Counted from the first letter of the stretch, positions 32,308-58,323 are shown. The stretch is DNA of 64,000 nt from Candidatus Iainarchaeum sp. (GCA_018304465.1 JAGVWC010000011.1:1-64000), one strand, 5' to 3'. The notes: generated by a model not told the origin, from the sequence alone. Translations and numbers: made by a program.

Positions 32308-33012
32308 TTATCGTCCGCCAAAATAAATGCTTTTAATCCGCGGATCCGACAAAATTTCTTTTCCCGCTTTTAAAGCGATTTTTCCGTCTTCCAAAACATA
32401 CGTTGAACTAGCAATTGAAACCGCTTGCTTGGCATTCTGCTCCACAATCATGACGCCGATGCCTTCCTGATTGATTTCAACGATTTTCTGAAAAATTTCT
32501 TTCATGGTTTTAGGAGCCAATCCAAGCGACGGCTCGTCCAACAACAACAACTGCGGGTTTTGCATCAAGGCGCGGCCAATGGCCAGCATCTGCTGTTGTC
32601 CCCCGCTTAAAGCAAACGCATACTCGTTTTGTTTTTGCTTTAACATCGGAAATTTACCGAATACCTCCGACAAATTCCGCTCCGCCACGTCCCGATCGGC
32701 CAATACGAACGCGCCCATTTCCAGGTTTTCACGAACAGACAAATCCGAAAACAGGATCCGACCCTGCGGAACAAAACAAATTCCTTCTTCGATTAATTCA
32801 TGCGTGGCCAGATGCGTGATGTCCCGGTCCTTCCAAAAGATTTTTCCCTCCGTGACATCGCACTGTGAAAACACCGCTTTTAGCACCGTGGATTTACCCG
32901 CGCCATTCGGACCGATCAACGCGACGATTTCGTCCGGCGCAACCGAAATATCCACGCCATGCAAGACCTCCTGGTCCCCATACCCCGCACACAAATTCGA
33001 AATCGAAAGCAT
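32308..33012 (-). CDS. livF: Liv-type ABC transporter ATPase, LivF-like
   Basis: GPNGAGKST, LSGGQQQMLAIGRAL, LDEPSLGLAP. Confidence 0.92.
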   Translation of the reverse strand: MLSISNLCAGYGDQEVLHGVDISVAPDEIVALIGPNGAGKSTVLKAVFSQCDVTEGKIFWKDRDITHLATHELIEEGICFVPQGRILFSDLSVRENLEMGAFVLADRDVAERNLSEVFGKFPMLKQKQNEYAFALSGGQQQMLAIGRALMQNPQLLLLDEPSLGLAPKTMKEIFQKIVEINQEGIGVMIVEQNAKQAVSIASSTYVLEDGKIALKAGKEILSDPRIKSIYFGGR

Positions 33013-33018
33013 CGTTTT

Positions 33019-34158
33019 TCATTGCTCCGAGTACAGTATAAATTCTCCGTTTTTAACGGTTTTGAGTGCCAAATCCACCTGTCGGTCGCCGAATTCATCA
33101 AACGAAATCGTTCCTGTTAGGCCCGGGTAATCCGCCGTTTGGAATAATTCGTTTTTCACACAGTTTGTGTCAATGGGATTTTCGCATTCAGACAATGCAA
33201 CGCTCAGCACGTTCAAGGCATCAAACGCAAACGTTCCGAAATACTCCGCATCAACGCCAAAGCGGTTTTGATACGATTCATTATACGCAACCGCCGCGCT
33301 GTTTTTTCTTGGATCAAACACGGGGGCCAGATAAACGATCGTGTTTTGAAACGCTCTCGCGGACTCCAAAAAATCGCTTCCTTCCACCGAGTACACATGT
33401 GAAAAAATCGGGTTAAAATAACCCATTTCGTTCATCTGTCGCACCACCAATCCCGATTCTTTGAGATGGCCGATAAGAAAAACGTAATGATCCTTGTCCC
33501 GCACTGCTTTTTGAATTACGGTTCGAAAATCAAAACCGTCTTGTTCGAACGATTCCATGCCCGCGATCGTTCCGCCGGCGGATTCATAGGCGTCCTTGAA
33601 TGCGTTAAAAATAGAAATTCCTTGATCATTATTAATATACAACACGTTTACTTCGTTTTGTTCATGATTCACAAACCAATTCGCGGTATCGACCCCAAAT
33701 TGTTCCGCTTTGGGAGCCGTGCGAAACGTGAAATCGTTTTTCGACCGATACGCACTCGTGGTCGCTGAAAAATCCATCTGAATCACGCCGTCCCAATTGG
33801 CGAGCGGCGATATCGCCACGGCCGGAGAACTTCCCATTGTTATGACATACGAAACGTTGTCTAACCTTCGAAGTTTGTTGTAGGCGTTCACGCTTTCTTG
33901 AGCATTGAATTTTCCGTCCTCAAAGATCAGTTTGATCGGACGTCCATTGATGCCACCTTTGCCGTTGATTTCGTCTTTTGCGATTTCAAGCGCGTTTTTA
34001 CCCCATTCTCCGTACACCGCGCCGTTTCCAGACAACGGAAGGATCACTCCAACCTTGATCGGTCCTTTCGAAACTGTTTCCGATTCGAATTGAAGACAAC
34101 CAAACAGCAGGAAAACCAGGAGTACCAGACCTAGTCCGACGGGGTTCCTCAAAAGCAC
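33019..34158 (-). CDS. Leu/Ile/Val-type ABC substrate-binding protein 1 (lipoprotein)
   Basis: LFGC lipobox; IKVGVILPLSG, EINGKGGING, GLTGTISFDEFGD. Confidence 0.9.
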   Translation of the reverse strand: MLLRNPVGLGLVLLVFLLFGCLQFESETVSKGPIKVGVILPLSGNGAVYGEWGKNALEIAKDEINGKGGINGRPIKLIFEDGKFNAQESVNAYNKLRRLDNVSYVITMGSSPAVAISPLANWDGVIQMDFSATTSAYRSKNDFTFRTAPKAEQFGVDTANWFVNHEQNEVNVLYINNDQGISIFNAFKDAYESAGGTIAGMESFEQDGFDFRTVIQKAVRDKDHYVFLIGHLKESGLVVRQMNEMGYFNPIFSHVYSVEGSDFLESARAFQNTIVYLAPVFDPRKNSAAVAYNESYQNRFGVDAEYFGTFAFDALNVLSVALSECENPIDTNCVKNELFQTADYPGLTGTISFDEFGDRQVDLALKTVKNGEFILYSEQ

Positions 34159-34161
34159 CGT

Positions 34162-34899
34162 TTATTCCCCCAAGTACGCTTCCAACACCATTGGATTTTT
34201 CCGGATTTCCTTAGGCGAGCCCTCCGCGATCACGCGGCCGTCATCCATTACAATCACTCGATCCGAAACCGACAAGGTGAAATTCATGTCATGCTCGATC
34301 AACAACACGGTTTCGCCTTTTTTCCGCAGTTCCACCAGCAACTCCGCGATTTCACTTCGGATCTTCGGATTCACTCCCGCCACGGGCTCGTCTAACATCA
34401 GCAACTTGTGCGGCGAAAGCATCGTGCGGCTTAATTCCACCAAGCGTTTTTGCCCAAAACTCAATTCGCCCGCGGATTTGTTTTCAATTCCTTTCAACCC
34501 AACCAACGCCAGCGAATCAGAAACCGGTTTCTCCAACGCCAACAAAGCGCTGCCGCGCCCGACCATGTTCGAAACGAACCCAGTGTCATTTGAGTCCAGA
34601 CCCAGCAACAAGTTTTCCCGAACAGACAAGTTCTTGAATAAAGACGATTTCTGGAACAACCGCGCGATTCCTTTTTTCGAAACGGCTTCCGGCAAAAACC
34701 CGGTGATATCCGCTCCGTCAAAAACGATTTTGCCGGCGTCGGGTGAAAGCACGCCGGACACCAGGTTAAAAACCGTGGACTTTCCAGCGCCATTGGGGCC
34801 GATCAACGCGGTGATCTTGTTCGGTTCCACCGAAAAACTGCACTCGGAAACGGCTTTCACACCGCCGAAACGCTTGGATAATCCTTGCACTGAAAGCAT
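34162..34899 (-). CDS. livG: Liv-type ABC transporter ATPase, LivG-like
   Basis: KRFGGVKAV, GPNGAGKST, LSFGQKR, LDEPVAG, IEHDM, EAYLG. Confidence 0.92.
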   Translation of the reverse strand: MLSVQGLSKRFGGVKAVSECSFSVEPNKITALIGPNGAGKSTVFNLVSGVLSPDAGKIVFDGADITGFLPEAVSKKGIARLFQKSSLFKNLSVRENLLLGLDSNDTGFVSNMVGRGSALLALEKPVSDSLALVGLKGIENKSAGELSFGQKRLVELSRTMLSPHKLLMLDEPVAGVNPKIRSEIAELLVELRKKGETVLLIEHDMNFTLSVSDRVIVMDDGRVIAEGSPKEIRKNPMVLEAYLGE

Positions 34900-34945
34900 G
34901 AAAAATATACATCAAAAACAGAATAAAAGGGTTTTGCGGACGGAC

Positions 34946-36106
34946 CTATTCGTCGAATCGGACGAATTTCCCGTTTTTAACGGTTTTCATTACGATTGGA
35001 ACATCCGGATCCCCATTCGCGTCAAAAGTGATCGGTCCAACGACTCCTTCTCCCTTCGTATTATAGATTTCTTTTTTGATGCAATCCGAATTCGAATCAC
35101 ATTTCTTGAGCGCATTTGCAATAATATGGGTCGCATCATACGCCAGCGGAGCAAACCCACCCGTTGGAACTCCGTATGTTTCCCAGTAGTTTTGTTCATA
35201 GGTTTGCGCTTTTGAATTTTGGTTTCCTGAAATGAAATGATAGGCATACAAAACGCCTTCCGCCTCGTTTCCAAGTGCCGAAATCGTTGACTGGCTTTCA
35301 AACGGCGGCCCCGCGAGAATGGTCGCGTTCAAATCCAGTTCGCGCATCTGCTTGATCACAGCAATGGTTTCTTGATACCCTGCGATAAATACGACTTCGG
35401 GCTTGACCGCCTTTATTTTCGACAATTGCGTTTTGAAATCCGAGTCCCCTTGAGCAAAGGATTCTATTGCGATCACCGATGCCCCTGAGCCAGCCCAATC
35501 GGCAACAAAAGCGTCACTTAACGATTTTCCGAATTCGTTGTTGACGAAGATCACTGCTGCGGAGGAAAAGTTCCGGTCCCGAAGAAACGAAACGGATTTT
35601 TGGGTGTAAAAAACCGCGGAGGGCTGGATGCGAAAAATATAATCGCCTGCGTTTGAGATCGACGGAGCGATCGCGATCGCCATCACAACCGTTTTGTTTT
35701 TCTCCGCAATTGGTGCGGTCGCGACTACAACACCGGAGGCCCACGAGCCAATCACAACCGGAACACGATCCACTTGCGTCAATTTTTGCATGGCACTCGT
35801 TCCGATCGCCGCATCCGCCTGGTCATCCTCGAAAATAACCGTTAACCGTTTACCATTGATCCCGCCATCGGAGTTGATTTCACTCTTGGCCAATTCAATC
35901 GCGTTCTTGATTTCGATCCCATAAACCGCATTTTTGCCGGACAGAGGCAACAACGCTCCGATTTGGATTGTGTCACCACCCGGCGAAAAGGTCAAAAAAC
36001 CCGTTAGGTCAGGCCATAGGCCCAAAACGACTAACGCTACCGCCAGTAACACCAATGTCGCCACGAGCGAACGAGAAACCAAAAAAATCCCCCTTGAGCG
36101 AATCAA
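34946..36106 (-). CDS. Liv-type ABC substrate-binding protein 2
   Basis: N-terminal transmembrane anchor; IGALLPLSG, FEDDQAD, AYDA, FDANGD. Start codon uncertain. Confidence 0.88.
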   Translation of the reverse strand: MIRSRGIFLVSRSLVATLVLLAVALVVLGLWPDLTGFLTFSPGGDTIQIGALLPLSGKNAVYGIEIKNAIELAKSEINSDGGINGKRLTVIFEDDQADAAIGTSAMQKLTQVDRVPVVIGSWASGVVVATAPIAEKNKTVVMAIAIAPSISNAGDYIFRIQPSAVFYTQKSVSFLRDRNFSSAAVIFVNNEFGKSLSDAFVADWAGSGASVIAIESFAQGDSDFKTQLSKIKAVKPEVVFIAGYQETIAVIKQMRELDLNATILAGPPFESQSTISALGNEAEGVLYAYHFISGNQNSKAQTYEQNYWETYGVPTGGFAPLAYDATHIIANALKKCDSNSDCIKKEIYNTKGEGVVGPITFDANGDPDVPIVMKTVKNGKFVRFDE

Positions 36107-36147
36107 AATCGCCTATACATACCGGTGATAGTCTTATATTTATCAAA

Positions 36148-36171
36148 TTGTAGTCTTATTTAAGATGACAA
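36148..36171. promoter_or_regulatory. Candidate TrmB operator, TTGT-N16-ACAA
   Basis: TTGTAGTCTTATTTAAGATGACAA in the divergent binding-protein/TrmB promoter. Confidence 0.45.
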
Positions 36172-36911
36172 AAATGAACGAATTAGAAGTGCTGATCGAA
36201 CTCGGGTTGTCTCCCGTTGAAGCGCGGGTATATTTGACGCTCTTACAGACCGGCTCGACGCGGGTGGGCGCCGTGATCCGAAAAACGGGCTTTCACCGTG
36301 GCACCACTTACCAAGTACTGCACCGATTGGCCGAAAAAGGCCTAGTGTCCTCGGTAGTGAAAGGAAAAAAACAGTTCTTTGAAGCCGCAAATCCGGATCG
36401 ATTAGGCGATATGCTCAAGGAAAAAGAAGCCCAACTGGACGAAATCTTACCGGGACTCAAAGCAAAAGCGGGAGTCGCCGGCGAAAAACAAGAAGTCGCC
36501 GTCTATTACGGAACCGCGGGCATCAAAAGCGTCTTGGACAAAATGCTTTTTGAACTTGGACAAGGCGGAAAATACTGCGACTTTGGGGTGTCAGGGCTGT
36601 TTAAAAAAATGCTTCCCGCGTACTGGTCGCTTTGGCAAAAGCGTAAAAAACGCTTGCATATCTCATCAAACGTGATTTTTAACGAAGACGTCCGGTTTGA
36701 ACATCCCGGACTACTGGCAGAATATGTCGGGAAGCGGCGGTTTCACCCCAAGGAGTTCGCAAGCCTCACCGATACCATGATTTACCGCGACACAGTGATC
36801 CTGTTCATCTGGACCGCATTACCCCCAATTGCGATCATCATCAAGAACAAGGAAAACGCCAAAAGCTACCAAAACCAATTCGAACTTATGTGGAAAAACG
36901 CAAAGCGCTAA
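36165..36911 (+). CDS. TrmB-family transcriptional regulator 1
   Basis: LGLSPVEARVYLTLL...HRGTTYQVLHRLAEKGLV; C-terminal sensor domain ending FELMW. Confidence 0.9.
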   Translation: MTKMNELEVLIELGLSPVEARVYLTLLQTGSTRVGAVIRKTGFHRGTTYQVLHRLAEKGLVSSVVKGKKQFFEAANPDRLGDMLKEKEAQLDEILPGLKAKAGVAGEKQEVAVYYGTAGIKSVLDKMLFELGQGGKYCDFGVSGLFKKMLPAYWSLWQKRKKRLHISSNVIFNEDVRFEHPGLLAEYVGKRRFHPKEFASLTDTMIYRDTVILFIWTALPPIAIIIKNKENAKSYQNQFELMWKNAKR

Positions 36912-36917
36912 ACCGCT

Positions 36918-38069
36918 TTAGTTTCCTTCATACAAAACGAATTTCCCGTTTCGCACGGTTTTCAGCACATACGGGATATGAACATCCCCGTTGTCGTCGA
37001 AATCGACTGCCCCCAAAACGCCTTCGAACCCGCTCAACCGATCCAGTTTCCCCTTAACGCAAGCACCGGAATCCGATTCGTTCGCATCGCATTTTCGAAG
37101 AACGGTGGCGGCCACCCACAACGCGTCATAGGCCCGGGCGATGTTGGTTTCGGGTTCTTTTCCAAGCAATCGCTTCACTTTTTCAACGAAATCCAATCCT
37201 TTCGGAGTCGATAAACCTGCCTTGAAAAAACGGATTCCTTCCGCGTCTCTTCCCGCATTTTTAAGGAACTCTGCGTTTTCAATTGGTTCGGCGGCAAAAA
37301 CCGGAAGAAGAATCCCAAACTCCGTCCGCTGCTTGAGAATCAATTCGGCGTCCGGTGCATAAGAAATCAAAAGCAACGCTTCTGAATCCGCCTGAACTAC
37401 TTTGCTTAATTCTGACCGAAAATCCCGCTGTTCGGGGGCATAGGTTTCTTGGATCAAAATAATTCCACCCCGTTCCAAAAACCGTTTTCGAAAGGCTGGA
37501 AAATAACCCAAACCATAATCATTGTTAATTTGTAACACTGCGACGGAATCCACTCCGATGGAAACCAAATAATCCGCCATTTCGGCGCCTTCGAACGCAT
37601 TCGAGGAAACGATCCGATACGAATAATCATCGGGACTCGAATATGATGCCGTCGAACAATCAGTCGCCAACAAGACGGTTTGATCCGCATCGGCAGAAGC
37701 GGACAATGCCATGCAAATGTTGCTTAACCCCGAGATCACCAATGGAGCGTTCGATTCAAGCCGGATTTTTTGCCACGCGCTTAACGCCTGTTTGGGATCC
37801 GCGGCGCTGTCTTCAAAATCTACGCCCAACGGTTTTCCATTGATACCGCCGCCGGCGTTGATCTCAGACAACGCCAGTTCCAATCCCTGACGCTCCAGTT
37901 CCCCGTACCGGGCGTTTTTCCCCGACAACGGCAAGATCGCTCCGACGTGAACTGAGGCATCGGCGTCCGAATCAAGCCCCCAAAAACCGGCCAATCCCGG
38001 ACCCACGGCCGCCGCCAGCACAATCACAACCGCGATGAGAATTCCTAACAGAACCCATTTAGCATCCAA
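36918..38069 (-). CDS. Liv-type ABC substrate-binding protein 3
   Basis: Transmembrane anchor; VGAILPLSG, EINAGGGING, AYDA, FDDNGD. Confidence 0.9.
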   Translation of the reverse strand: MDAKWVLLGILIAVVIVLAAAVGPGLAGFWGLDSDADASVHVGAILPLSGKNARYGELERQGLELALSEINAGGGINGKPLGVDFEDSAADPKQALSAWQKIRLESNAPLVISGLSNICMALSASADADQTVLLATDCSTASYSSPDDYSYRIVSSNAFEGAEMADYLVSIGVDSVAVLQINNDYGLGYFPAFRKRFLERGGIILIQETYAPEQRDFRSELSKVVQADSEALLLISYAPDAELILKQRTEFGILLPVFAAEPIENAEFLKNAGRDAEGIRFFKAGLSTPKGLDFVEKVKRLLGKEPETNIARAYDALWVAATVLRKCDANESDSGACVKGKLDRLSGFEGVLGAVDFDDNGDVHIPYVLKTVRNGKFVLYEGN

Positions 38070-38125
38070 CCAAAGCCCCCGAGCAGGTGTTCATAAACAT
38101 TGGGCCAAGGGACCTACAAATAATT

Positions 38126-38149
38126 TTGTTGCGTGAAAGCTCACAACAA
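38126..38149. promoter_or_regulatory. Candidate TrmB operator, TTGTTG-N12-CAACAA
   Basis: TTGTTGCGTGAAAGCTCACAACAA immediately upstream of TATA-like TTTAAAT. Confidence 0.55.
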
Positions 38150-38184
38150 TAAATTTAAATGCTTGTCGTTCGATTTTCGGTGCA

Positions 38185-38901
38185 ATGAACGCAAGTACGC
38201 TGATGCAGCTTGGATTAAGCGAAACCGAAGCGCGGATCTATTTATCGCTTTTGCGCCGCGGAGCCATGCAGGCAGGAGCCATCAGCAAGGAAGCCCAGGT
38301 AAACCGCACCACGACGTATGATTGCCTCGAACGATTGATCGCGGACGGAATCGTCACGTACTCCATCGAAGCCAACCGCAAGGTGTTTCACCCCGCACCA
38401 CCAAATCGTTTTCTGGATCTGATCAAGGAACAGGAAAAAACGGCCGTGGAACTCCTGCCGGAACTCGAGCGCCAATACAAGGCCCGCAAGGAAACCGAAG
38501 AAACCAACATTTACAAGGGAAAAAAAGGCATCCGTTCTATCCTCCAAGAAATCCTGAAATATCCCAACTACGAGGCATTCGGCTCGGGCGGACGCTTTTT
38601 GGAAATCATGGAACACGATTTTTTGGCGTTCCAAAAACGAAAAGAAGCGAAAAAAATAAAATCCCGCATTGTGGTCAATCAGTCCGCTCGAAAAACACAG
38701 GGAATCCGCGAAGCGTTCGGATCGTTTCGATTCGTTTCGGACGAATTCACGGGCGGACCCGTCACCACATTCATTTTCGGAAACAACGTGGCGATCGTAG
38801 TATGGGCCGAAACCCCGTTTGCCACCGTGATCTCAAGCCCCGAAGCCGCCAAGAGCTTCAAAAACCACTTCGAACTGCTCTGGAAAACCGCGCGGCCCTG
38901 A
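38185..38901 (+). CDS. TrmB-family transcriptional regulator 2
   Basis: LGLSETEARIYLSLL...NRTTTYDCLERL; ends FELLW. Confidence 0.9.
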   Translation: MNASTLMQLGLSETEARIYLSLLRRGAMQAGAISKEAQVNRTTTYDCLERLIADGIVTYSIEANRKVFHPAPPNRFLDLIKEQEKTAVELLPELERQYKARKETEETNIYKGKKGIRSILQEILKYPNYEAFGSGGRFLEIMEHDFLAFQKRKEAKKIKSRIVVNQSARKTQGIREAFGSFRFVSDEFTGGPVTTFIFGNNVAIVVWAETPFATVISSPEAAKSFKNHFELLWKTARP

Positions 38902-40065
38902 TTAGTTTTCCAAATAGGAAACGAATTTTCCATTCTTGACTTGTTTTATGAACACGGGTTTTTGGGCATTTCCGTTTTCGTCAAAAGAAAAACACCCGGA
39001 TTCGCCGCAATACGACCTGGTTTCGTTTAAGCTTTTCTGAAGTCCAACCGGAGTAACCGGGTTTTCGTTTGAATTCATCACGGCGTTTGCGATAATGAAC
39101 AATCCGTCATAGGCTTCCGGCGACCAGCGTTTCGGGTTTTCATTAAACTTCGCTTTTATCTTGTAACCATAGGAATCCTTGGGAAACCCGGAAAACGTCA
39201 CGAATACCACGCCCTCCGCGGTGTCCTTTGCGCCATCCAGCACTTCCTGCGTTTCAATCGAGCCGTTTACGAGTAAAAACGAAGATACTCCCAGCTCCCG
39301 GACTTGCTGTAACGTCGGAATATTTTCATTGGTGAGCTGGGCGACAAAGAGAACGTCGGGATTCGTTGATTTGATTTTGGACAATTGGGTCCGAAAATCC
39401 GTTTCCCCTTTTCCCGTGCTTTCCACCGCCGTTGTTTCTCCGTCTAATTCACCAAACCTAGACACAAACGCGTCTTTTTGGTTCACGGTGGTCTCGTTGT
39501 AATTCGCATAAAGCACCGCCGCCGTTTTTGCGCCGCGGTCTTTGGCCAACTCAGCGGCTTTTTGTCCAAGCAAAGAAGACTCGCCTTCGTTTCGAAAAAC
39601 AAATTCACCCGCGCTTTCAAGGTCTTTCGTCTGAGACGCCATGGCATACAACACGATTTGGTTCGTTTGCGCGAGCGGCGAGACCGCCACGGCGTGCTGG
39701 GAAGGACCCGTGATCAGGGCAATCGGTTTTTCCGTGGAAATGAGCCGTTGAACAGCCGAAACCGTTTCTTTGACCTCCCCGTGATTGTCTTCAAACACCA
39801 ATTGAATCGAAAACGGATACGAGGCATTGATTTCCGACGCCGCCAATTCAAGGCCTTGACGGATGCCTTCTCCGTAGGGAGCTTGGCTTCCGGAAAGCGG
39901 AATCACCACACCAATCGAATACGTGGGTTTGGAGACGGGTGGGGTGGAAAGTCCGAAAAAACCGCTTGCGACAAACGGGCCGATGAACACGACGGCTCCC
40001 ACCAACACCAGAATAAACAGACCGATCAGCGCCTTATTATCCGGTTGAAATGCACCCAAATTCAT
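38902..40065 (-). CDS. Liv-type ABC substrate-binding protein 4
   Basis: Transmembrane anchor; IGVVIPLSG, DFRTQLSKIK, AYDG, FDENG. Confidence 0.9.
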   Translation of the reverse strand: MNLGAFQPDNKALIGLFILVLVGAVVFIGPFVASGFFGLSTPPVSKPTYSIGVVIPLSGSQAPYGEGIRQGLELAASEINASYPFSIQLVFEDNHGEVKETVSAVQRLISTEKPIALITGPSQHAVAVSPLAQTNQIVLYAMASQTKDLESAGEFVFRNEGESSLLGQKAAELAKDRGAKTAAVLYANYNETTVNQKDAFVSRFGELDGETTAVESTGKGETDFRTQLSKIKSTNPDVLFVAQLTNENIPTLQQVRELGVSSFLLVNGSIETQEVLDGAKDTAEGVVFVTFSGFPKDSYGYKIKAKFNENPKRWSPEAYDGLFIIANAVMNSNENPVTPVGLQKSLNETRSYCGESGCFSFDENGNAQKPVFIKQVKNGKFVSYLEN

Positions 40066-40104
40066 ATTCTCTATATAACTGCTGTAAGTGAACTTAATAT
40101 TTTT

Positions 40105-40128
40105 TTGTTGTTTTTTTTAAAACAACAA
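40105..40128. promoter_or_regulatory. Candidate TrmB operator, TTGTTG-N12-CAACAA
   Basis: TTGTTGTTTTTTTTAAAACAACAA, with 10-bp perfect inverted arms. Confidence 0.55.
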
Positions 40129-40166
40129 TACATATTTTTTTATTGGAATAGTCCCCTGTTTTCTTC

Positions 40167-40907: not shown

Positions 40908-40911
40908 GGGG

Positions 40912-42015: not shown

Positions 42016-42092
42016 ATGTAACTTAGCACAGTTAAAAAATATATTGGATGTTAGTAATATTAACTACTACAATAATCTTTGAATGGGATGAC

Positions 42093-42836: not shown

Positions 42837-42866
42837 CACTAAAAAACGAACATTTCTAACATTTGA

Positions 42867-43565: not shown

Positions 43566-43577
43566 AAACCAAAAAAC

Positions 43578-45325: not shown

Positions 45326-45678
45326 TTTTATCTGAAAATATCTGGAAAAAGGGCTTTATAATCATTTTCACACGGTTTCGGGTTTTGATCAGCGGAATTC
45401 GAACGGACCCACGTCGAATCGAGCGGATCCGTCTTTGTCCCCGTCCAATGGTCGCGCGACACCCGTGAAATCATTTGTGATCGATAACCCGCGCCTTGGT
45501 CGACCGCCGGACTTTGGGCTTGGATGAAATCGCATTCGAAATATTTCAGGAAAAAAACCGAAGAAACCTTTTTTTGTGAAAAAACAACAGCGGCTTCGGG
45601 CGAAAAAGATTCCATTAAAGGAATACAAAAAGGCCCAATATACACGTATGTCATTTAGCGAATTTTACCTTTGTTTCT

Positions 45679-47148: not shown

Positions 47149-47350
47149 AGGTAGTTATGTCGCATTAGTATTAAAATATTTTGCATTTACTGCAAAATTT
47201 ATATTTGTTGATTGTGGGACTTTAAACGGCGAACAACGCCTTTTCGAGCATGGGAAGCGAATAGTCCCTCGAAAACGCCGGTTCCAGTCGAGGCATCAGT
47301 TTTCCCTTTTCTATTATAAGAAGAATCAGTATTAAAGCATTGGGAGCACG

Positions 47351-49858: not shown

Positions 49859-49868
49859 GGAATCCCCG

Positions 49869-50828
49869 TCATTTCAAAGTCGTAATCGGCCGCGCCTGCA
49901 AAATATACACTTTATCATCAATGGCCCATTCGATATCCATGGGCTGACCGTAATGCGATTCGATATTCAAGGCTTCCTTGGCCAGCGCTTTCCACTCCGA
50001 ATCCGACAACGCCGCGGAATTCGCTTCTTCTTCCCCGATCTCGATTTCCTTGTTTTGCCCGAATTCGTCCCGAATAATCGCGATTCGCTTTCCACCGATA
50101 GTATGCGATACCACGGACAAATCTTTTTTCTTTAGAATCAAGGTATCCGGGGTTACCATTCCGGAAACAACGCTTTCACCCAAACCAAACGCGGCTTCGA
50201 TAATCATTTCGTCGCGCGCGTTCGTCACCGGATTCGCAGTGAATAAGACGCCCGCTTTTTTGGAATTCACCATTTCCTGGATTACGACCGAAATCAACAC
50301 CATTTCGTGCTTGAAACCTTTGGATTCGCGGTAAAAAATCGCGCGCGGAGAATACAACGACGCCCAGCACTTCTTGACCGCTTCCAAAATGCCGTCATCG
50401 CCTTTCACGTTCAAAAAAGTGGCTTGCTGTCCGGCAAAACTCGCGTCCGGCAAGTCTTCCGCCGTCGCGCTGGATCGCACCGCAACGAATCCTTTTCCAA
50501 GTTTTTTGTAATCCGCCAAAATGTCATCGCAAATTGATTGGGGGATTTGCGCGTTTAGGATCAGCAATTCGATCTGGTTGGCGGTTTTTTCCAACTGCTC
50601 GGAATCATCCACGTTCGTCTTGTTCAGCAAATCATGAATTTTCTTATGAATCTTGTTTTCATCCACGAACTGCTTAAAGACGTGAATCGTAATGCAAAAA
50701 CCATTCGGAATCGGAAACTTCGAAAACATTTCCCCCAGGTTTGCGCCTTTTCCGCCAACCAACGGAATATCTTTTTTTTTGATTTCCGAAAACCACGCGA
50801 TGTTTTTTTCTAAAGGCATATGATTCAT
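49869..50828 (-). CDS. Standalone PEP synthase/PPDK N-terminal ATP-grasp domain protein
   Basis: VGGKGANLGE, VAVRSSATAEDLPDASFAGQQ, GLGESVVSG, DIEWA, LQARPIT, then stop. No His domain and no PEP/pyruvate barrel. Confidence 0.92.
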   Translation of the reverse strand: MNHMPLEKNIAWFSEIKKKDIPLVGGKGANLGEMFSKFPIPNGFCITIHVFKQFVDENKIHKKIHDLLNKTNVDDSEQLEKTANQIELLILNAQIPQSICDDILADYKKLGKGFVAVRSSATAEDLPDASFAGQQATFLNVKGDDGILEAVKKCWASLYSPRAIFYRESKGFKHEMVLISVVIQEMVNSKKAGVLFTANPVTNARDEMIIEAAFGLGESVVSGMVTPDTLILKKKDLSVVSHTIGGKRIAIIRDEFGQNKEIEIGEEEANSAALSDSEWKALAKEALNIESHYGQPMDIEWAIDDKVYILQARPITTLK

Positions 50829-50937
50829 ATCATCCTTTTCCCATTTAAATAGTAACGAAAAACGGTTTCGGCCGTTATGAAGCGGGATACCTTTAAATAT
50901 CAAAAAGTAAGTAGGTCTTCATTGGAGGCATTTTTTC

Positions 50938-51834
50938 ATGGCACCACGACCATTGCTTGGAAGATTCGGAAAAAAACCCGGGAAAACAGGTTCGCCGAAA
51001 ACACCTGAACAGTCCAGTCAATCCGGTGTTGCAGCAAAATATGTTGGAAAGATTCCTGTCGGAACCGTTCGAAGCTATTTGGGCCGGCATCAAATAAAAC
51101 AAAAAGGCACTCCAACAGGTTTATCTCCCGAAGGAGAAGGCCGTGCAAGTGAAGCGCTTTTGCCTGGATTAAAAAGCGGACGCCAATATCGGGTCACTAC
51201 TTCCACGAATGATCGCGCCTTCCATACCGGTCGATTGGGTGCGGAAGCGTACCGACGCCTCGGGGGACGCGCCAACACCGGGGCCGTGCTAAATGACCGT
51301 CGAGTGGCAAAACGCGTCGATCACATCGTCAAAGGCAAGCCAACGCGTGGACGCGTCCTTAAATCCATGAGCGCGGATCATGTTTTACCCGAACCTCAAC
51401 TCACGGAATACATGAACATCATCGAAGAACTGAAAGCTCAAGACAAACGACTAAATGACACCACTGCCGAGGAAAAACTCCTCGTAGATTGGGCTATGCA
51501 TGGAAAATACGCGCGTCGCATCGGAGATCCGATCAAAATCACTGATAATATCATCCTGGATACATTGCAGCTGGGAAAAGAAGTCAGCAAGCGCGGCGGG
51601 CAAAACATCGAACTGCGAAACGTGTCTCACAGCGGTTTCGTTGAAATGGTTTTCATGCGTTTAACCGGACGAGATTACCGTGAAACCGGAAAAGGCATGG
51701 TTGAACCCGGAGAAGGACTTCTCGTTCATTTTCTTCCCGAAGGAAAAGCCGTGCTTGAATATCGCGACAAACAATTCGACGTAACCAAAAAATTAAACCA
51801 GATCATTAAGAGCGCCCGCAGCAAGTATCGCTAA
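50938..51834 (+). CDS. Histidine-phosphatase-superfamily-like protein with basic leader
   Basis: YLGRHQ (RHG-like), LSPEG, TSTNDRAFHTG, NVSHSG. Confidence 0.6.
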   Translation: MAPRPLLGRFGKKPGKTGSPKTPEQSSQSGVAAKYVGKIPVGTVRSYLGRHQIKQKGTPTGLSPEGEGRASEALLPGLKSGRQYRVTTSTNDRAFHTGRLGAEAYRRLGGRANTGAVLNDRRVAKRVDHIVKGKPTRGRVLKSMSADHVLPEPQLTEYMNIIEELKAQDKRLNDTTAEEKLLVDWAMHGKYARRIGDPIKITDNIILDTLQLGKEVSKRGGQNIELRNVSHSGFVEMVFMRLTGRDYRETGKGMVEPGEGLLVHFLPEGKAVLEYRDKQFDVTKKLNQIIKSARSKYR

Positions 51835-51860
51835 CGGCACTCCTTTTTTTTTATTTTTTA

Positions 51861-52271
51861 TTAATTATTGTCCCTACTCCGTAACTCATATATTTTTTGG
51901 AGAATATTATCCAAATGCTCATGCACCAATGTCTGATCTCGCACAATCGCTTTTACACTTTCCGGAACTACAAATCCTTTTCGAACATCGCTTCGCAATG
52001 CCTTTTGGAACGCAAGGGTCATGTCTTCTATTCGACTACGGGCATTTTCTAGATATCGAATAGCAGGATCTTTTTTTTTCCACTCTGTCGGAATCGATGA
52101 AGAATGAAGACGCCGGAGAATCTCAGCCTCAATAACACGCATATTCCGTTGGATTTCTTGCATTGGATAATCTCGTTCGACCGCGCTATGAACCCGCGTC
52201 ATAATTTCTCTTCGCCTGTCAGCTACCTTTTCACGCAACTGAGGTCGACGCATCGGTTTTCTGGACTTCAT
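51861..52271 (-). CDS. Hypothetical basic helical protein
   Basis: 136-aa Arg-rich ORF starting MKSRKPMRRP; no family recognised. Confidence 0.55.
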   Translation of the reverse strand: MKSRKPMRRPQLREKVADRRREIMTRVHSAVERDYPMQEIQRNMRVIEAEILRRLHSSSIPTEWKKKDPAIRYLENARSRIEDMTLAFQKALRSDVRKGFVVPESVKAIVRDQTLVHEHLDNILQKIYELRSRDNN

Positions 52272-52324
52272 TTAACCACCGGTGTATTTTAGGTTTATAA
52301 TCTTACTTGTCTCCAACAACACCT

Positions 52325-53740
52325 TTATTTCTTTTCGATGACTGTTATAGAACCGTGATTCGCTTTTACTTGAACGATCCAACCATCTTTAAGCACCCGC
52401 GTCGCGTTTTTGGTGCCGATCACGCACGGAATTCCCAATTCGCGGGAAATGATTGCCGCGTGACTCGTAATTCCCCCTTCATCGGTTACAATCGCAATCG
52501 CTTTTTTCATCGCCGGAACAAATTCTGGTCTTGTCATGCTGGTCACCAAAACCTCGCCTTCTTTTAATTCCGCGATGGAATCCAGCGTCCGAAGAATCCG
52601 AACGGGCCCCGTGGCGATTCCCAAGGAAGCGCAGGTTCCGTTTAATACCTCCACTTCGTCCAAACGGGTTTTAAACCGTTGTTGATACTCCAAAAAATCC
52701 GAATGATCAAAAATCATTACGCCTTGGGAATGCTCGATTCCGATGAACCCTTTTTTTCGCCTTTGGCCCAAGGATTCGAGTTCACGGTTTTTCAATCCTT
52801 TTAGCGAAACTTCTTCGCCGGTCAGATACTGGATAGCCACCGGATCGACTCCAAACCGCCTCGCCAATTCGTTGACGATCAACTGGCAACCAAACACCCC
52901 GCGAAAAATGTTTTTCTTTCGCTCGTCCTGCCATTGCGTGACAAAATCCGTCCATTCCACCCATTGACGCTGCGCATCGGAAAAGCCGTACCGAGCCATT
53001 AACGCCTCTTTTTTGTGCCGAATCTCTGAAAGATCCGGTTTTGAAAACGATTCAAGCCCATCCGCCATTTTTTCCACATCGGACTCGGACAAAACCTCGC
53101 TTCCCGCATACGAGGTTTCCGACCAAAAAAAATCCTTCAAAAACCGCTGAATCAACGCTTTTTTTTCCTTGGCGCCTGCGTTTTTGATTTGCCAGAGCAA
53201 TTCTTCTTTTTGAGATACAAAGGAGTGCGACAAGGGTGTTGTGAGAGCGGAAAAATCCTCATTTGACTGTGTGCCGGTGACGCCCTTGAAGAGTTCGTGG
53301 CGCATTCGATGCTCTAACGCCAAGGCCAGACTTTCGATCACATGCGATGATCCGACGGTTACTCCGCGGCTAACCCAATGACGCTTGGAAAGATCTATCA
53401 ACGCGTCATCAGGTAATTTGGTCAAATCGCTTTCCGCCGCCGCAAAAACGGGTTCTTGATCCGCGACTTGCCGGTCGTAAACGCGCCGAAGCGCCTGCAA
53501 ATACGATGGGTCCTTTTTCAATTCGGAAAAAATCCGATTCGCAATCGCATCCAAATCTTTTTGCGGGTACTTCCATTCACAATAATCCTCTTCATACGTG
53601 GCCAAAATCGCATGGTAGGAATACCCCATGGTTTTTTGCATGACCGGCAATCCACCCACCCCAATCATGAAAATCGGGCGTCCCGGACAGCTTTGGGTAT
53701 ACCATTCTTGGGACAAATATTTTTTCAGTACCGGGTTCAT
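52325..53740 (-). CDS. Phospho-His swivel domain protein, paralogue 4
   Basis: GTCASLG...[10 protein letters not shown]...[21 protein letters not shown]. Confidence 0.88.
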   Translation of the reverse strand: MNPVLKKYLSQEWYTQSCPGRPIFMIGVGGLPVMQKTMGYSYHAILATYEEDYCEWKYPQKDLDAIANRIFSELKKDPSYLQALRRVYDRQVADQEPVFAAAESDLTKLPDDALIDLSKRHWVSRGVTVGSSHVIESLALALEHRMRHELFKGVTGTQSNEDFSALTTPLSHSFVSQKEELLWQIKNAGAKEKKALIQRFLKDFFWSETSYAGSEVLSESDVEKMADGLESFSKPDLSEIRHKKEALMARYGFSDAQRQWVEWTDFVTQWQDERKKNIFRGVFGCQLIVNELARRFGVDPVAIQYLTGEEVSLKGLKNRELESLGQRRKKGFIGIEHSQGVMIFDHSDFLEYQQRFKTRLDEVEVLNGTCASLGIATGPVRILRTLDSIAELKEGEVLVTSMTRPEFVPAMKKAIAIVTDEGGITSHAAIISRELGIPCVIGTKNATRVLKDGWIVQVKANHGSITVIEKK

Positions 53741-53928
53741 ACAAATTCCCTTTTCTCGATCACGTTGGAGTTATTTTCGTCGGCGATCATGGCTACGACT
53801 TTTCTCTGAATCCGATATTCTGCCATGAGAGATACCTGTCTTTCCCGCTGCATATAACGTCATACGAGTTACCCTTCGGTCTTTTCGGTTCTGATTCTGC
53901 CAAAGGTTGAACGAGGTCGTCTAGGCAT
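53737..53928 (-). pseudogene. Possible degraded small basic-leader gene
   Basis: The frame reads [61 protein letters not shown] and overlaps both neighbours. Confidence 0.3.
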
Positions 53929-55360
53929 TGAATTTACCCCTTTTCTCCAATACCACGATTTGTCCGTGATTCGCTTTTACTTGAACGATCCAACCATCTT
54001 TAAGAACTTTAGTAGCGCTCTTGGTCCCGATCACACAAGGTATTCCGAGTTCTCTTGAAACAATGGCCGCATGGCTTGTGATCCCGCCTTCGTCAGTGAC
54101 GATCGCAACGGCTTTTCGCATCGCAGGAACGAATTCCGGTCGCGTCATCGATGTAACCAATACTTCGCCGTCTTTCATCGAACCAATCGACGACACCGTG
54201 GTGAGTACCCGAACCGGTCCTGTCGCAGTTCCCAAAGACGCGCATTGCCCATAAAGCGTTTCCAGATCATCATGCTTGGAATGAAATTGCTGGTCAAAAA
54301 ACTCGGCATCGGCTTGGTCCAGGAACGTCGTTTGGTTGCCCAGTTTCACATAAAGACATTTTTTTTGGCGTTTTTTTGATTTTTTCTGAAGAGAACCGTT
54401 TCGAATCGATTGAAGAGAAATTTCCCAGGGCAACACGTAATCCAGATCTCTTTTCGGAATCGAATACCTGCGTGCCAACTCGTCTTGGAATTTGGCAAGC
54501 AAGCACACACCTCTTAAAATTTCCCGTTTTCGCTGATCCTGCCAATCCGTCAAAAAATCAATCCATTCGACGATATTTCGTTGCTTAACCGAAAAATCCA
54601 GTTTCGTCATGACCTTGGTTTTTTCGGTTTGAATTTTTTTCGCATCCGGTGTTTTTACTTCGGGAATTTTTTCGGCGGTGGACAAAATCTCTTCTTTGGT
54701 CCATTGTTTGGGACCCGCGTATCCTCCGTCCGCCCAGAAAAACGTCTTCAGAAACCGGTCTACCCGCTCCGAACGCTTTTTTCCCTTGGAGATCCGAATG
54801 TCAAACAACGCTTGGTCTCGCAGCAAGGCAAAAGAAGGTTTGGTGGGGGTTGTCAGATTCACAAAATAAAGATTCACGTTTTCCGGAACGGTTTTTTCTT
54901 TGATGCCGTGTCGCAAATCGCGCTCAAGACGGATTGAGATGCTCTCGATTAAATGCGCAATTCCGATCACGGCATTGATATGGCGGCCCACGAACTCCAA
55001 CCGATCGAATAATTCTTCTTCGGAAAATTTTGACAAGTCTTTTTCAAGCAGGCCATTCGAAAAAAACCATCTCACTTCGGCAGCCCATTTTTTTCTTTGT
55101 TTTTCCAGGTATTTCGGATCCTTTGTCAGTTCTTTTTCGATCCGATCGGAATTGCGCTCGAGGTCAGCTAATCCATAATTGGCTTCCACGTAATCAATTT
55201 TGAAAAAAAAGAAGAAATCGGTATAGGTGAACCCCAGACCGTTTTTCATGTGATCGAACGGCTCTTCAATGTATCCGAACGGAACGATGAAAAACGGTTT
55301 TCCTGGAGTGGCCCCGGTGTACCACTTACGTGCCAGCATGCGATTAATGATTGGATTCAA
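53921..55360 (-). CDS. Phospho-His swivel domain protein, paralogue 5
   Basis: TTG start overlaps the upstream TGA and gives MNPIIN, matching the MNP- starts of paralogues 4 and 7; [21 protein letters not shown]. Confidence 0.87.
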
Positions 55361-56832
55361 CGATCGTCCCCCACCTTGCGGATAATTCCGTGATTCGCGT
55401 TCACTTCGATCAAATCGCCCGTCTGAATCGCCTTGGTGGCGTTTCCCGTGCCGATAACACACGGTTTTCCGAGTTCTCGCGAAATAATCGCGGCGTGACA
55501 CGTGATCCCTCCCAGTTCGGTAACGATCGCGCCCGCTTTTTTCATCGCGGGAACAAATTCAACCGAAGTCATCGTCGTGATCAATACTTCGCCGGCTTTG
55601 AAAAGAGAAATTTCCCTCGAATTTAAGAGCACCCGCGCGCGACCAACAAAAATCCCCGGTGACGCCGCGGTTCCTTTCATCACCTGATGCTCAAAATCTG
55701 TTTTTTTCGATATTTTTTTTTCAAGATCCGCGATTTCGCTTTCCGAAAGAAAACGATACGCTCCGTTTTCCACAATAAACGCGCTTTTTTCGATTCGCTT
55801 GGACAACTCCGCGGCTTTCGGCCCGTCTCCGCGAATAATGTTTTGCAGTTCCGAAACCGTCGCGTAATGCAGTTCCCGTTCAGAAATGTTTCGCCGCTTT
55901 CCGATTTCTTCAAGCAAACGGCCAAATCCGACATTCGCGATCGAAATCCGCTCTTTTTTCAAGTCGCCATACAAAAAAGCGATTTGCCGGATATTTTCAA
56001 AAAGAATCTCCAATTCAAGCGGAAGATTCGTCCGATTTTGGATTTCGCGCAGCCGTTTCGACGCGTTTTCCTCCAGATGCTCAAAGTCAAAAATCCGTTT
56101 TTTTCGCTCCGAAACCGGAATCGCCTGCAAGCAGTCCAATTCTTCGTGCACCATTTTTTCGTCCAGAATGGGGCCGTAGTAATCATAGGTTAGAAAATAA
56201 AACCGTTTGGCGTGAAGCCGAATCGCTTCTTTTTTTCGATCCTCTTCTTTGATCAACGAAATCGCCAAAAGGCTTTCTTCGGCGCGCGCGACAAAACTTT
56301 TATGAACCGGGTTGGCCAAGACCGAAAAAATTTCCGCGATTTCCGATTTCTTGAAATTCTTGTTTTCTTTGGCCAAAAAAACGGCTAAACGGTCCTGTAC
56401 CAACTGGTGTCCGCGAATCTCCAGCGAAAAATTCGCGGGTTCCGTCCAATACTCGGACTCGATGTAAATCCGAACTGCTTCGTTGAAAAGCGTTTCCAAA
56501 TCCGCGTCCGAAAAATTTTCCAAGCGTTCATTCAATACCGCGGGATCGATCAGTTCCAGCAATTGTTTTGCGTTTCGTAAAAAGTTGTTGCGCAACGGCT
56601 CAATGATTCCTCTTTGATGGGACAATCGCTCGACAACTGCGTTGGCCACGGTTTCCATTTGGTCCGGCAGCCAATACCACGTGCTCTGCCCGTTTTCAAT
56701 CAAACAAAAAAAACCCGAAAACGCCATGGGGACGCCAAGCGAACGATCCATCGTCTGGTTGTAGGATGACGCCATGACTCCCGTTGGAAAAGGCGGCGCG
56801 GAACTCGAATACACTTTGACAAGATTCTCCAT
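55357..56832 (-). CDS. Phospho-His swivel domain protein, paralogue 6
   Basis: GTAASPG...[10 protein letters not shown]...[21 protein letters not shown]. Confidence 0.88.
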
Positions 56833-56834
56833 GA

Positions 56835-58292
56835 CTAGTTCGCCTTAACCTTGCGCACGTACCCGTGATTCGCGTTGACCTCAACCAAGTCCCCGTCTTG
56901 AAAAGTTTTGGTCGCGACTTGCGTTCCGATGATGCATGGAATTCCCAGTTCGCGGCTTACGATCGCGGCGTGGCTGGTGATGCCGCCTTCGTCGGTCACG
57001 ATTGCGGAGGCTTTTTTCATCAAGGGGACGAATTCGGGTCTTGTCATTCCCGTCATCAAAACGTCGCCTTCGCGAAACTTCGAAAACGCGTTGATGTTAA
57101 GAATAATCTTCGCGGGTCCCGTTGCTTTTCCAAGCGACGCCACGGCGCCATACACGGTTTCTTGCCCCGAAAACGACCGCTCGATCCGATCGAACAATTC
57201 GGCGGCTTGGTTGGTTTCCACCAAATAATCGCCGGGTTGATCGAGCTCGATCAGCCAAACGCCTTGTTTCACCCGCATTTTCAAGGTCTCCAAAAGGTTT
57301 GGATCGCCTTCGACAAAGGCTTTGTATTCCAAAAAAGGAATCACGAAATCGCTTTCAAACATCGGGATGCCTTTTTTTTCGGCAATGCCGTGAAAAAAAC
57401 CAATGACCCCCCAATTGGCGATGTTGGTGAATTTTTTGCGAACATCGCGAAAAAACGCCAGGTCCGCGAATTGCTGAATCCGCGCACGCGTTTGTTCGTC
57501 AAAACCGTATTTTTCAATAATCTTTTTTTTCTTGTCTTTCAATTCTTTCCAAAACGCGTTTTGGTGTTTTTCGGATAGCCGGGCAAAGAAAAAATCTTCT
57601 CCAAGCACCGTTGCGGTCTGGTAATTGTTTTCGATCCACCAGAAATTTTTCTGATGCGCCGAAAGCATTTCCGAAACTGCGTCCGAAAGTTGCTTTCCGT
57701 CTTTTTCAAATTGCTGCTGGATTTTTTCAAACGATTTTTGTTCTTCCCACAAAAAAGTCGTGTCCGGCAACAGCAAGGTCTGCAGATCCGCCGCGCTCAC
57801 TTCGGACAACCGATTTCCGAAGATGTACTTTAGAATTTCTTTTTCGAACGGATCGAACAAATCAATGAAAAGCGAACACGCCCAGCGTTTGAATTCCTGA
57901 TCGAGAAATTTTCCGAATTCGTCCACGCATTTTTGCTGGGTTTTTTCGGAAAAATTCTTTCCAAGTTCAGCGACTCCAAAAGACCGTTCTTCCAGTCCTT
58001 TCCCAAACCCGTTGTGACGCTTGAGTTGTTGTTTTACCCACGAAGGGTTTTTGGTCATTTTTTCCAGCAACTGCAGTACCAGTCGCTTGCCATGGTCAAT
58101 GGGCCAATACATGAACGCGGATTGGATCGGGCTTACGTATACCGCTGTGTTAAGCAGCCAGATTCCGTCCGAAAGATCCGAATACCTAGGCAAAGACAAG
58201 GTGGCTGCCGGCAGCATGATCGTAATGGTCAACGAAGGCGCGCTTTGCTTGTAGTAGGAACGGCGGGCGATTTTCTCCAATTCAGGATTCAT
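56835..58292 (-). CDS. Phospho-His swivel domain protein, paralogue 7
   Basis: GAVASLG...[10 protein letters not shown]...[21 protein letters not shown]. Confidence 0.88.
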   Translation of the reverse strand: MNPELEKIARRSYYKQSAPSLTITIMLPAATLSLPRYSDLSDGIWLLNTAVYVSPIQSAFMYWPIDHGKRLVLQLLEKMTKNPSWVKQQLKRHNGFGKGLEERSFGVAELGKNFSEKTQQKCVDEFGKFLDQEFKRWACSLFIDLFDPFEKEILKYIFGNRLSEVSAADLQTLLLPDTTFLWEEQKSFEKIQQQFEKDGKQLSDAVSEMLSAHQKNFWWIENNYQTATVLGEDFFFARLSEKHQNAFWKELKDKKKKIIEKYGFDEQTRARIQQFADLAFFRDVRKKFTNIANWGVIGFFHGIAEKKGIPMFESDFVIPFLEYKAFVEGDPNLLETLKMRVKQGVWLIELDQPGDYLVETNQAAELFDRIERSFSGQETVYGAVASLGKATGPAKIILNINAFSKFREGDVLMTGMTRPEFVPLMKKASAIVTDEGGITSHAAIVSRELGIPCIIGTQVATKTFQDGDLVEVNANHGYVRKVKAN

Positions 58293-58323
58293 TTGGTTCA
58301 CTATCAAGCAATCCGTTTTGAAT

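Follow-up and report, generated by a model that had tools for sequence, protein, structure and literature searches.

A multi-receptor ABC importer beside an array of predicted split-dikinase subunits in a DPANN archaeon

Organization of the locus

The window analyzed here is a 64,000-nucleotide stretch, given as one strand, from Candidatus Iainarchaeum sp. (GCA_018304465.1, JAGVWC010000011.1:1-64000), a DPANN archaeon whose genome (labeled G000) comprises 1.25 Mb in 15 contigs and is 91.9% complete. Its second half holds two gene arrays that lie side by side: a LIV-type ATP-binding cassette (ABC) importer with five binding proteins and four TrmBL2-like regulators (module A, 32308-45325), and a set of seven proteins with a phospho-histidine swivel domain, accompanied by one stand-alone ATP-grasp protein (module B, 45679-62734). 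We conclude that these are probably two autonomous accessory modules, a regulated multi-receptor amino-acid-type importer and a many-to-one array of split dikinases that resemble rifampin phosphotransferase (RPH), and the adjacency of the two is best read as that of two accessory blocks within one variable region and not as a single machine.

Genes were called from a listing of open reading frames (ORFs), and the window proteins were then scanned against Pfam and NCBIfam. Below, BP denotes a Peripla_BP_6 binding protein and H a swivel-domain kinase subunit (H1, H2s and H3-H7); relatives' genomes are labeled Gnnn, sampled loci Lnnn, and C1, C6, C7, C13 and C15 are contigs of G000. The window proteins have their named relatives in DPANN archaea (Micrarchaeota, Diapherotrites, Woese- and Nanoarchaeota) and in the Candidate Phyla Radiation (CPR/Patescibacteria). 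Module A is made up of the following genes, given with window positions and strand.

32308-33012 (-): LivF-type ABC ATPase (ABC_tran, 8e-32)
33019-34158 (-): BP1, Peripla_BP_6 with a lipobox-like N-terminus, LFGC (Pfam, 1.9e-41)
34162-34899 (-): LivG-type ABC ATPase (ABC_tran and BCA_ABC_TP_C)
34946-36106 (-): BP2, nearest solved relatives HAAT amino-acid binding proteins (Pfam, 4.1e-51; PDB 4gnr, 2.3e-32)
36165-36911 (+): TrmBL2-like regulator 1, divergent from BP2 across a 58-bp spacer (TrmB, 7.2e-14; its model matches TrmBL2, Foldseek E 2e-13)
36918-38069 (-): BP3 (Pfam, 3.4e-41)
38185-38901 (+): TrmBL2-like regulator 2, divergent from BP3 (TrmB, 6.9e-16)
38902-40065 (-): BP4 (Pfam, 8.8e-43)
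40167-40907 (+): TrmBL2-like regulator 3, divergent from BP4 (TrmB, 8.2e-15)
40912-42015 (-): BP5, the most diverged of the BPs (Pfam, 2.3e-30; PDB match, 8.7e-12)
42048-42836 (+): TrmBL2-like regulator 4, divergent from BP5; the start may be 42093, where the alignment begins (TrmB, 7.9e-16)
42867-43565 (+): M55 D-aminopeptidase, DppA-like (Peptidase_M55, 3.4e-36; NCBIfam DppA, 1.7e-22, below cut-off)
43578-44450 (-): LivM-type permease (BPD_transp_2, 3.8e-52)
44447-45325 (-): LivH-type permease (BPD_transp_2, 4.8e-38)

The kinase subunits of module B follow.

45679-47148 (-): H1, RPH-like substrate domain and phospho-histidine swivel domain (PEP-utilizers, 7e-22; TDDGGITCH at residue 439)
47351-48391 (+): H2s, short form of 346 residues with a swivel domain and paralogs on C13 and C15 (Pfam; catalytic-histidine motif)
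48386-49858 (-): H3 (Pfam; catalytic-histidine motif)
49869-50903 (-): stand-alone ATP-grasp subunit (PPDK_N at positions 2-312 of 328, E 9.3e-111, no other domain)
52325-53740 (-): H4, the modeled subunit (structural scores in the next section)
53921-55354 (-): H5, start placed near 55354 by homology rather than at 55501 (Pfam; alignment of relatives; motif)
55357-56832 (-): H6 (Pfam; catalytic-histidine motif)
56835-58307 (-): H7 (Pfam; catalytic-histidine motif)

The ORF listing and the family scans recovered, each at its expected place, every gene class that the original prediction had listed: one LivFGHM set, five BPs, four TrmB regulators, one M55 peptidase, seven swivel proteins, one PPDK_N protein and one phosphatase-like protein.

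The ATP-grasp subunit and its candidate partners

Six of the seven swivel proteins are 471-491 residues long and the seventh has 346, and the PEP-utilizers domain lies at the C-terminus. They are 26-42% identical to one another over their aligned parts, and mutual identity among their N-terminal domains ranges from 13 to 38%. The swivel-domain signature that carries the catalytic histidine, T/S-x-x-G-G-x-x-x-H according to the accessible part of PMC12167813, is kept as T-x-x-G-G-x-x-x-H in all seven. The N-terminal ~380 residues of H1 and H3-H7 have no match in Pfam or NCBIfam. For H4, an AlphaFold2 model computed from a 34-sequence alignment reached a predicted local distance difference test (pLDDT) score of 92.5, and its best matches in the PDB are structures of RPH (Foldseek E 2.8e-14). 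Residues 4-469 of the model superimpose on residues 321-867 of RPH-Lm (VIA-align Z 19.3, root-mean-square deviation 5.3, 417 residues), a span that comprises the rifampin-binding and swivel domains without the ATP-grasp domain. H4 is the sole H protein that was modeled, and the others are tied to the RPH-like fold by their shared N-terminal domain. The domain absent from this span is found in the adjacent ATP-grasp protein, which is the one stand-alone PPDK_N protein of G000, the other two being a canonical 806-residue phosphoenolpyruvate (PEP) synthase (PpsA) and an 883-residue pyruvate phosphate dikinase (PPDK). The PEP-utilizers_C domain (PF02896) occurs in none of the H proteins and not in the ATP-grasp protein; its copies in G000 belong to PpsA and PPDK only. 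At least three further H subunits are encoded in G000, on C6, C13 and C15. Contig C13 additionally encodes a 109-residue stand-alone swivel (PEP-utilizers) protein with neither a substrate nor an ATP domain (80318-80647, minus strand).

The NCBIfam models PRK08296 and PRK06241 align with the swivel region only, at 63-101 bits against cut-offs of 578-999; because these scores fall so far short, we regard the H proteins as relatives by fold and architecture and not as members of the curated PpsA-like or RPH-like families. The closest architectural counterparts are HpeHI, CreHI and PpsAB, which are described in the available text of PMC12167813 as two-component RPH homologues, each consisting of an ATP-grasp protein and a substrate-binding/swivel protein. 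The genes at our locus share with them the split into a PPDK_N-only protein and an RPH-like substrate/swivel protein with the catalytic histidine, as well as the absence of the PEP-binding TIM barrel. Given the fold of H4, the conserved histidine motif and this common architecture, we interpret module B as a split RPH-type small-molecule dikinase in which one ATP-grasp gene would serve many partners. It differs from the known two-component enzymes in several respects: they pair their components 1:1, whereas here a single ATP-grasp gene accompanies seven local and at least ten genome-wide diverged partners; the H proteins here are ~470-490 residues long and match PRK08296 far below its cut-off and in the swivel region alone; it is found in DPANN archaea and CPR bacteria instead of aromatic-degrading bacteria; and the genes linked to it encode His_Phos_1-like and HAD phosphatases, a UPF0173 hydrolase and an HTH_10 protein, with no carboxylase family among the recurrent neighbors scanned. 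We regard the many-to-one array as a variant of the known two-component small-molecule dikinases. RPH itself and the single-chain PRK06241-type kinases PigC and RedH contain the same three domains, provide the best fold match and presumably use the same swiveling-histidine mechanism; however, identity to RPH is 14-18%, scores against the RPH, PigC and RedH models fall far short of the cut-offs, and the protein is split here into two genes and multiplied, fused forms being found in relatives.

In the reaction cycle that this architecture suggests, the ATP-grasp subunit would bind ATP and phosphorylate the catalytic histidine in the swivel domain of any H subunit; the phosphorylated swivel domain would then swing back to its own RPH-like substrate domain and pass the phosphoryl group to a small molecule, for a net reaction of ATP + X -> AMP + Pi + X-P. 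The diverged N-terminal domains would set different substrates. A structure prediction for the complex of the ATP-grasp protein with H4 scored 0.00, which, as it was run without controls, counts neither for nor against the interaction. At the level of gene content, the original view that each half combines one shared core with many diverged specificity modules holds up well: a single LivFGHM set stands beside five local BPs and a sixth encoded on C15, and a single ATP-grasp gene beside seven local H genes and at least three elsewhere.

Further members and extent of the kinase module

Three additional genes belong to module B.

50938-51834 (+): putative divergent histidine-phosphatase-superfamily protein (His_Phos_1-like), 298 residues; the real start is probably ~35 codons later (Pfam match of an ortholog, motifs, Atlas)
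58324-59103 (-): UPF0173 metallo-beta-lactamase-fold hydrolase (NCBIfam PRK00685, 208.7 bits, above cut-off)
62054-62734 (-): HTH_10 regulator (HTH_10, 4.1e-14)

The 298-residue protein itself has no Pfam match; an ortholog scores 24.3 bits against His_Phos_1 (cut-off 21.7). An RH pair (R50-H51) and R82 are invariant in seven of seven sequences and a distal SH is present in six of the seven, while the Atlas comparison gave a feature score of 0.93 with 173 shared features and template modeling (TM) scores of 0.61-0.65 to His_Phos_1 clusters. Its profile produced no significant match in the PDB (E 0.4-0.7), the top entry being a putative SixA at E 0.4, and a homologue search returned four proteins including the query. 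Homologs of this protein lie beside H genes in three genomes (G001, G141 and G137), and the UPF0173 hydrolase adjoins H genes in four (G001, G003, G141 and G097). Among the 46 loci with a full-length H that were used for neighbor-gene tallies, HTH_10 homologs occur near H in 10 and HAD phosphatases in 8. The original prediction had the array ending at 58292, and although the gene classes it named lie between 32308 and that point, the kinase module runs on to 62734 with the UPF0173 hydrolase and the HTH_10 gene. The His_Phos_1-like protein and the hydrolase would process phosphorylated products or reset the phospho-histidine, a place that HAD phosphatases may hold in other genomes, and the HTH_10 protein would regulate the module.

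These linked enzymes bear on one alternative view of the array, namely that it is a detoxification set of RPH-like kinases that inactivate antibiotics or xenobiotics met by the episymbiont and that has no connection to nutrient import. The best structural match is indeed a resistance enzyme, the substrate domains are diverged, and a count of rph-like genes in CPR genomes is given in the accessible part of PMC8651080. We nevertheless consider this reading unlikely, as the NCBIfam RPH models score far below their cut-offs (87 bits against 999), sequence identity to RPH is so low, and the linked His_Phos_1-like and HAD phosphatases fit a pathway that phosphorylates and then processes its substrates better than a dead-end inactivation.

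The importer module

Module A encodes, by Pfam, a HAAT/LIV ABC importer, with two BPD_transp_2 permeases, two ABC ATPases (one carrying a BCA_ABC_TP_C tail) and Peripla_BP_6 receptors. The two BPD_transp_2 matches in G000 both lie at this locus, as do five of its six Peripla_BP_6 genes. NCBIfam equivalogs for LIV or urea transport all scored far below cut-off for the module A proteins and give no substrate class. Each of the five BPs has an N-terminal hydrophobic anchor. Four BP genes form head-to-head pairs with TrmB genes across spacers of 32-115 bp, and BP2, LivG, BP1 and LivF form an operon-like run. Mutual identity is 24-34% among the BPs and 24-35% among the TrmB proteins; such low pairwise values within the BPs, the TrmB proteins and the swivel proteins indicate old paralogs.

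In E. coli, LivJ and LivK share LivHMGF, so that the LIV-I/HAAT importer has more than one binding protein. Module A follows the same plan, with one LivHM-LivFG translocator and several Peripla_BP_6 receptors whose nearest solved relatives are HAAT amino-acid binders; it departs from LIV-I/HAAT in having five to six receptors (relatives have up to 17 candidates) that are membrane-anchored as in archaea, in the private TrmBL2-like regulators of four of them, and in the inserted M55 peptidase. The regulators, of which G000 has about nine paralogs of ~250 residues each, match TrmBL2, an archaeal TrmB-family chromatin protein or repressor, over the full length of its profile (E 2.6e-9). TrmBL2 is also the closest fold to the model of one paralog (pLDDT 89.3; E 2e-13), and the two share a winged helix, a coiled coil and a PLD-like C-terminal domain. 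Because the paralogs are TrmBL2-like, ligand sensing by them is an assumption. There are nine paralogs in a genome here, each beside a particular BP or H gene, in contrast to TrmBL2 itself, which suggests that they act as local specific regulators. We envision a single LivHM-LivFG translocator that would be fed by five diverged, membrane-anchored BPs, four of them each placed under its own head-to-head TrmBL2-like regulator, with the M55 D-aminopeptidase as a further component. The most likely role of the module would be the regulated scavenging of several amino-acid-like solutes.

Arrays of both kinds in related genomes

The distribution of the two modules was surveyed in 215 genomes of the phylum, using for the kinase N-terminal domain a profile built from alignment A2 (12 sequences); copy numbers derive from the best nine candidates scored in each genome, a value of 9 meaning at least 9. 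A broader sample comprised 79 related loci from metagenome-assembled genomes of DPANN and CPR organisms, 21 of which contain a full-length H.

Among DPANN and CPR, the dikinase arrays have a wide distribution. Operons with four to five H genes and one ATP-grasp gene of 312-315 residues are present in G049, G054, G050 and G053, a stand-alone ATP-grasp gene (312-357 residues) occurs in four of the 21 sampled loci with a full-length H, and the arrays of the broad sample reach about 9-10 H genes. In other genomes ATP-grasp and H modules are fused in single open frames (1312 residues in G002, 1216 in G141, 1462 in G137, 1839 in G158 and 1233 in G150), the largest fused library protein having 2648 residues with six matched stretches. 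The 1.3-Mb genome G034 yields 21 matches to the whole-length H profile, a few of which are canonical PpsA/PPDK. The operons, the sampled arrays and the fusions together lead us to propose that the ATP-grasp subunit would be shared among its partners; the 83% complete genome G011, which has H genes and no PPDK_N-like match, speaks against this. The open-access literature that we searched yielded papers on two-component dikinases and no description of multi-copy dikinase arrays in DPANN or CPR. Near the H arrays of several relatives we also observed a gene for the topoisomerase VI B subunit with a LAGLIDADG intein (L105:349-3702, from G049, and syntenic loci).

Importer arrays recur in much the same manner. 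Liv arrays in which many BP genes are interspersed with TrmB genes, and which lack H, are present in G150, G151, G107 and G097; at least nine Peripla_BP_6 matches were scored in each of 13 genomes, with up to 17 candidates in G151. None of the relatives' Liv arrays was found to contain an M55 gene. In G003, the closest relative (65-74% identity), three BP genes lie upstream of LivH in the place taken by H1 at our locus. The sole H match of G150 is 146 kb from its Liv array, and the flanks of the Liv arrays in G107, G101 and G099 contain no H. An 806-residue gene beside the G150 array (L101:16295-18715), considered as a kinase link, proved to be a canonical PEP synthase with PPDK_N, swivel and PEP-utilizers_C domains (Pfam); a similar 808-residue gene occupies the same place beside the Liv/TrmB array of G151 (L120:13767-16193), which belongs with G150 to genus g40. 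LivH and LivM of G000 share 66-74% identity with their counterparts in G150, G107, G105 and G151, which belong to other families, and only 47-55% with those of G001 from the same family, a pattern hinting that the importer array was transferred laterally.

Relation between the two modules

The original prediction had joined the two halves into an import-and-phosphorylate system analogous to the phosphotransferase system (PTS), in which matching H subunits would trap or activate the imported solutes, which the TrmB paralogs would also sense. Most of the comparative evidence separates them. The H N-terminal domain was detected in 59 of the 215 genomes, BPD_transp_2 in 32 and Peripla_BP_6 in 34; no Liv permease was found in 46 of the 59 H-bearing genomes, and 19 of the 32 permease-bearing genomes have no H. 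Among the 11 genomes with at least five H matches a permease is present in G000 alone. Full-length relatives of H1 (49.7% identity in G189), H4 (45.1% in G011) and H7 (44.0% in G002 and 42.1% in G181) reside in genomes that are 83-92% complete and in which neither permease nor BP was found. Arrays of H genes in G049, G050, G053, G054, G034, G011 and G002 are likewise without a detected Liv permease or BP, and no Liv permease or BP gene lies within ~10 kb in any of the 21 sampled full-length H loci. The expectation that the halves would be linked in related genomes was therefore largely contradicted, adjacency being seen in one further genome, G141. In the 15 genomes with both H and BP, copy numbers show no positive relation (rho -0.27, p 0.33, with values of 9 standing for at least 9). 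The kinase module moreover has its own HTH_10 regulator, and the BPs resemble amino-acid binders, whereas the characterized relatives of H have phenolic or antibiotic hydroxyls as their targets, as far as the accessible text of PMC12167813 describes them.

A number of observations weigh against a complete separation of the two modules. H and permease co-occur in 13 genomes, the expectation being 8.8 (odds ratio 2.04, Fisher p 0.086), and H and BP co-occur in 15 genomes (odds ratio 2.46, p 0.022; Spearman rho across all 215 genomes 0.15), both tests ignoring kinship. Of the two proposed checks, co-occurrence showed a weak enrichment in presence (odds ratio 2.0-2.5), and no correlation appeared in copy number. 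In G141, a member of a different family, a series of HTH_10, hydrolase, H, His_Phos, H and ATP-grasp fusion genes runs up to a contig end, where the initial ~120 codons of LivH lie in divergent orientation, and the remainder of LivH with LivM and LivF occupies the end of another contig; although no true overlap joins the two contigs, the same two modules are probably adjacent. When the discovery genome is left aside, this one adjacency among 12 two-module genomes exceeds, by a rough estimate, the random expectation (below 1% per genome, p about 0.09), and, many assemblies being fragmented, adjacency could be scored in about half of the two-module genomes. TrmBL2-like genes, which stand beside BP genes at our locus, flank H on C6 of G000 (across a 73-bp divergent spacer) and in G011, G034, L003, L057 and L075; since this is the largest regulator family of the genome, the link is a weak one. 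The numbers of specificity subunits are also similar (5-6 BPs and 7-10 H). However, the junctions in G000 and G141 differ, with the H1 end of the kinase module abutting LivH in the former and the regulator end in the latter, and because the Liv genes of the two genomes are 65-75% identical and the kinase genes 42-50%, the two blocks do not look co-inherited.

The junction in G000 is formed by a short intergenic region.

45326-45678 (-): 353-nt spacer between H1 and LivH with TATA-like ATTATAAAG (sequence reading; a promoter is our interpretation)

The TATA-like ATTATAAAG lies ~30 nt before the LivH ATG, and its position suggests a separate start for LivH; H1 and LivHM are co-directional across these 353 nt, and possible read-through from the kinase genes is a further point against independence of the modules. 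The adjacency itself, which is part of the case for a joint system, appears to be genuine. The DNA of the locus is contained in 12 public DNA sequencing runs from groundwater and soil metagenomes, five of them possible sources, and no RNA run is listed; the LivH/H1 junction is spanned by contigs from two runs, both runs being possibly a source of this DNA and so not independent of the assembly. The only graph branch at the junction is a 30-mer common to H1 and H6 of the same array, and with two runs bridging it and the sole branch leading to H6, an assembly chimera was set aside. A 108-residue ORF within the spacer (45328-45654) is probably spurious, as it matches no family and reads like non-coding DNA with a TATA-like element.

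Weighing both sides, we judge a single import-and-phosphorylate system to be quite improbable, and the idea of an archaeal PTS analogue has to be corrected as attractive but unsupported. The resemblance to the PTS is one of design and holds separately for each module: both use general together with many specific components, and the swivel phospho-histidine domain alone is homologous to Enzyme I, whereas the phosphoryl donor here would be ATP, by way of the ATP-grasp protein, instead of PEP, and ABC transport is not coupled to phosphotransfer. A search of the 91.9% complete genome gave no PTS-HPr, and no EII family was found among the window proteins, a genome-wide EII search not having been made. 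A multi-input phospho-signaling network, in which the swivel proteins would act as phospho-histidine carriers or protein kinases and the His_Phos_1-like protein as a SixA-type phospho-histidine phosphatase, is highly improbable: a putative histidine-phosphatase-superfamily protein is conserved beside H genes with a putative SixA as its top PDB profile match, the 109-residue swivel protein stands alone, and the available portion of PMC13400623 describes VadK, a regulatory kinase derived from PPDK, but the SixA match lacks significance, a large RPH-like substrate domain is present in each H as in small-molecule kinases, and neither HPr in the genome nor output domains or receiver-like partners among the window proteins could be found.

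Neighboring features

Two further ORFs lie among or beside the genes of module B.

51861-52271 (-): basic helical ORF of 136 residues (no Pfam or NCBIfam match)
59100-61967 (-): membrane-anchored surface-protein-like ORF of 955 residues, no family (hydrophobic anchor; paralogs; Atlas)

The 955-residue ORF is one of at least five large paralogs in the genome (further copies on C1, C13 and C15, and at C7:90626-92917) with 36-49% identity over 190-330 residues, and its Atlas neighbors are 'cellulose-binding' or surface proteins only (TM about 0.5). It was set aside as a conserved part of the module, being a member of a multi-copy family that is not conserved at this position. The window contains no tRNA genes and no sign of a mobile-element border, its direct repeats reflecting only the similarity of paralogous coding regions, and PADLOC matched none of nine locus proteins to a defense system except for a generic HTH similarity of TrmB1. 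Elsewhere in the window, positions 6907-8598 (plus strand) encode a 563-residue RelA/SpoT-type protein with HD_4, RelA_SpoT and TGS domains; (p)ppGpp enzymes are unusual in archaea. Upstream of the locus, at 21975-28722, two GT4 glycosyltransferases, a GH100/GDE-like hydrolase and a GH130 phosphorylase are clustered.

Significance

The multi-receptor, TrmB-interleaved LIV importers emerge from this analysis as a recurrent module of their own in the phylum. The kinase arrays could conceivably form a modular phosphorylation platform of ultra-small archaea and bacteria, in which an ATP-grasp 'charger' would serve up to ~10 adjacent or more than 20 genome-wide subunits and which would be coupled in G000 and G141 to a multi-receptor ABC importer. 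We hold this broader proposal to be quite improbable; if it were true, imported host-derived solutes would be phosphorylated on arrival, and ABC and RPH-like parts would together do the work of a PTS. Irrespective of such a coupling, DPANN and CPR genomes are tiny, yet some contain 7 to ~20 copies of the kinase subunit, and this investment of many copies in so small a genome points to an important unstudied function. The arrays may serve in the salvage, activation or detoxification of several small molecules, and their predicted identity as split RPH/HpeHI-type enzymes with a shared ATP-grasp subunit, one charger for many acceptors, would offer a direct biochemical route to their substrates.

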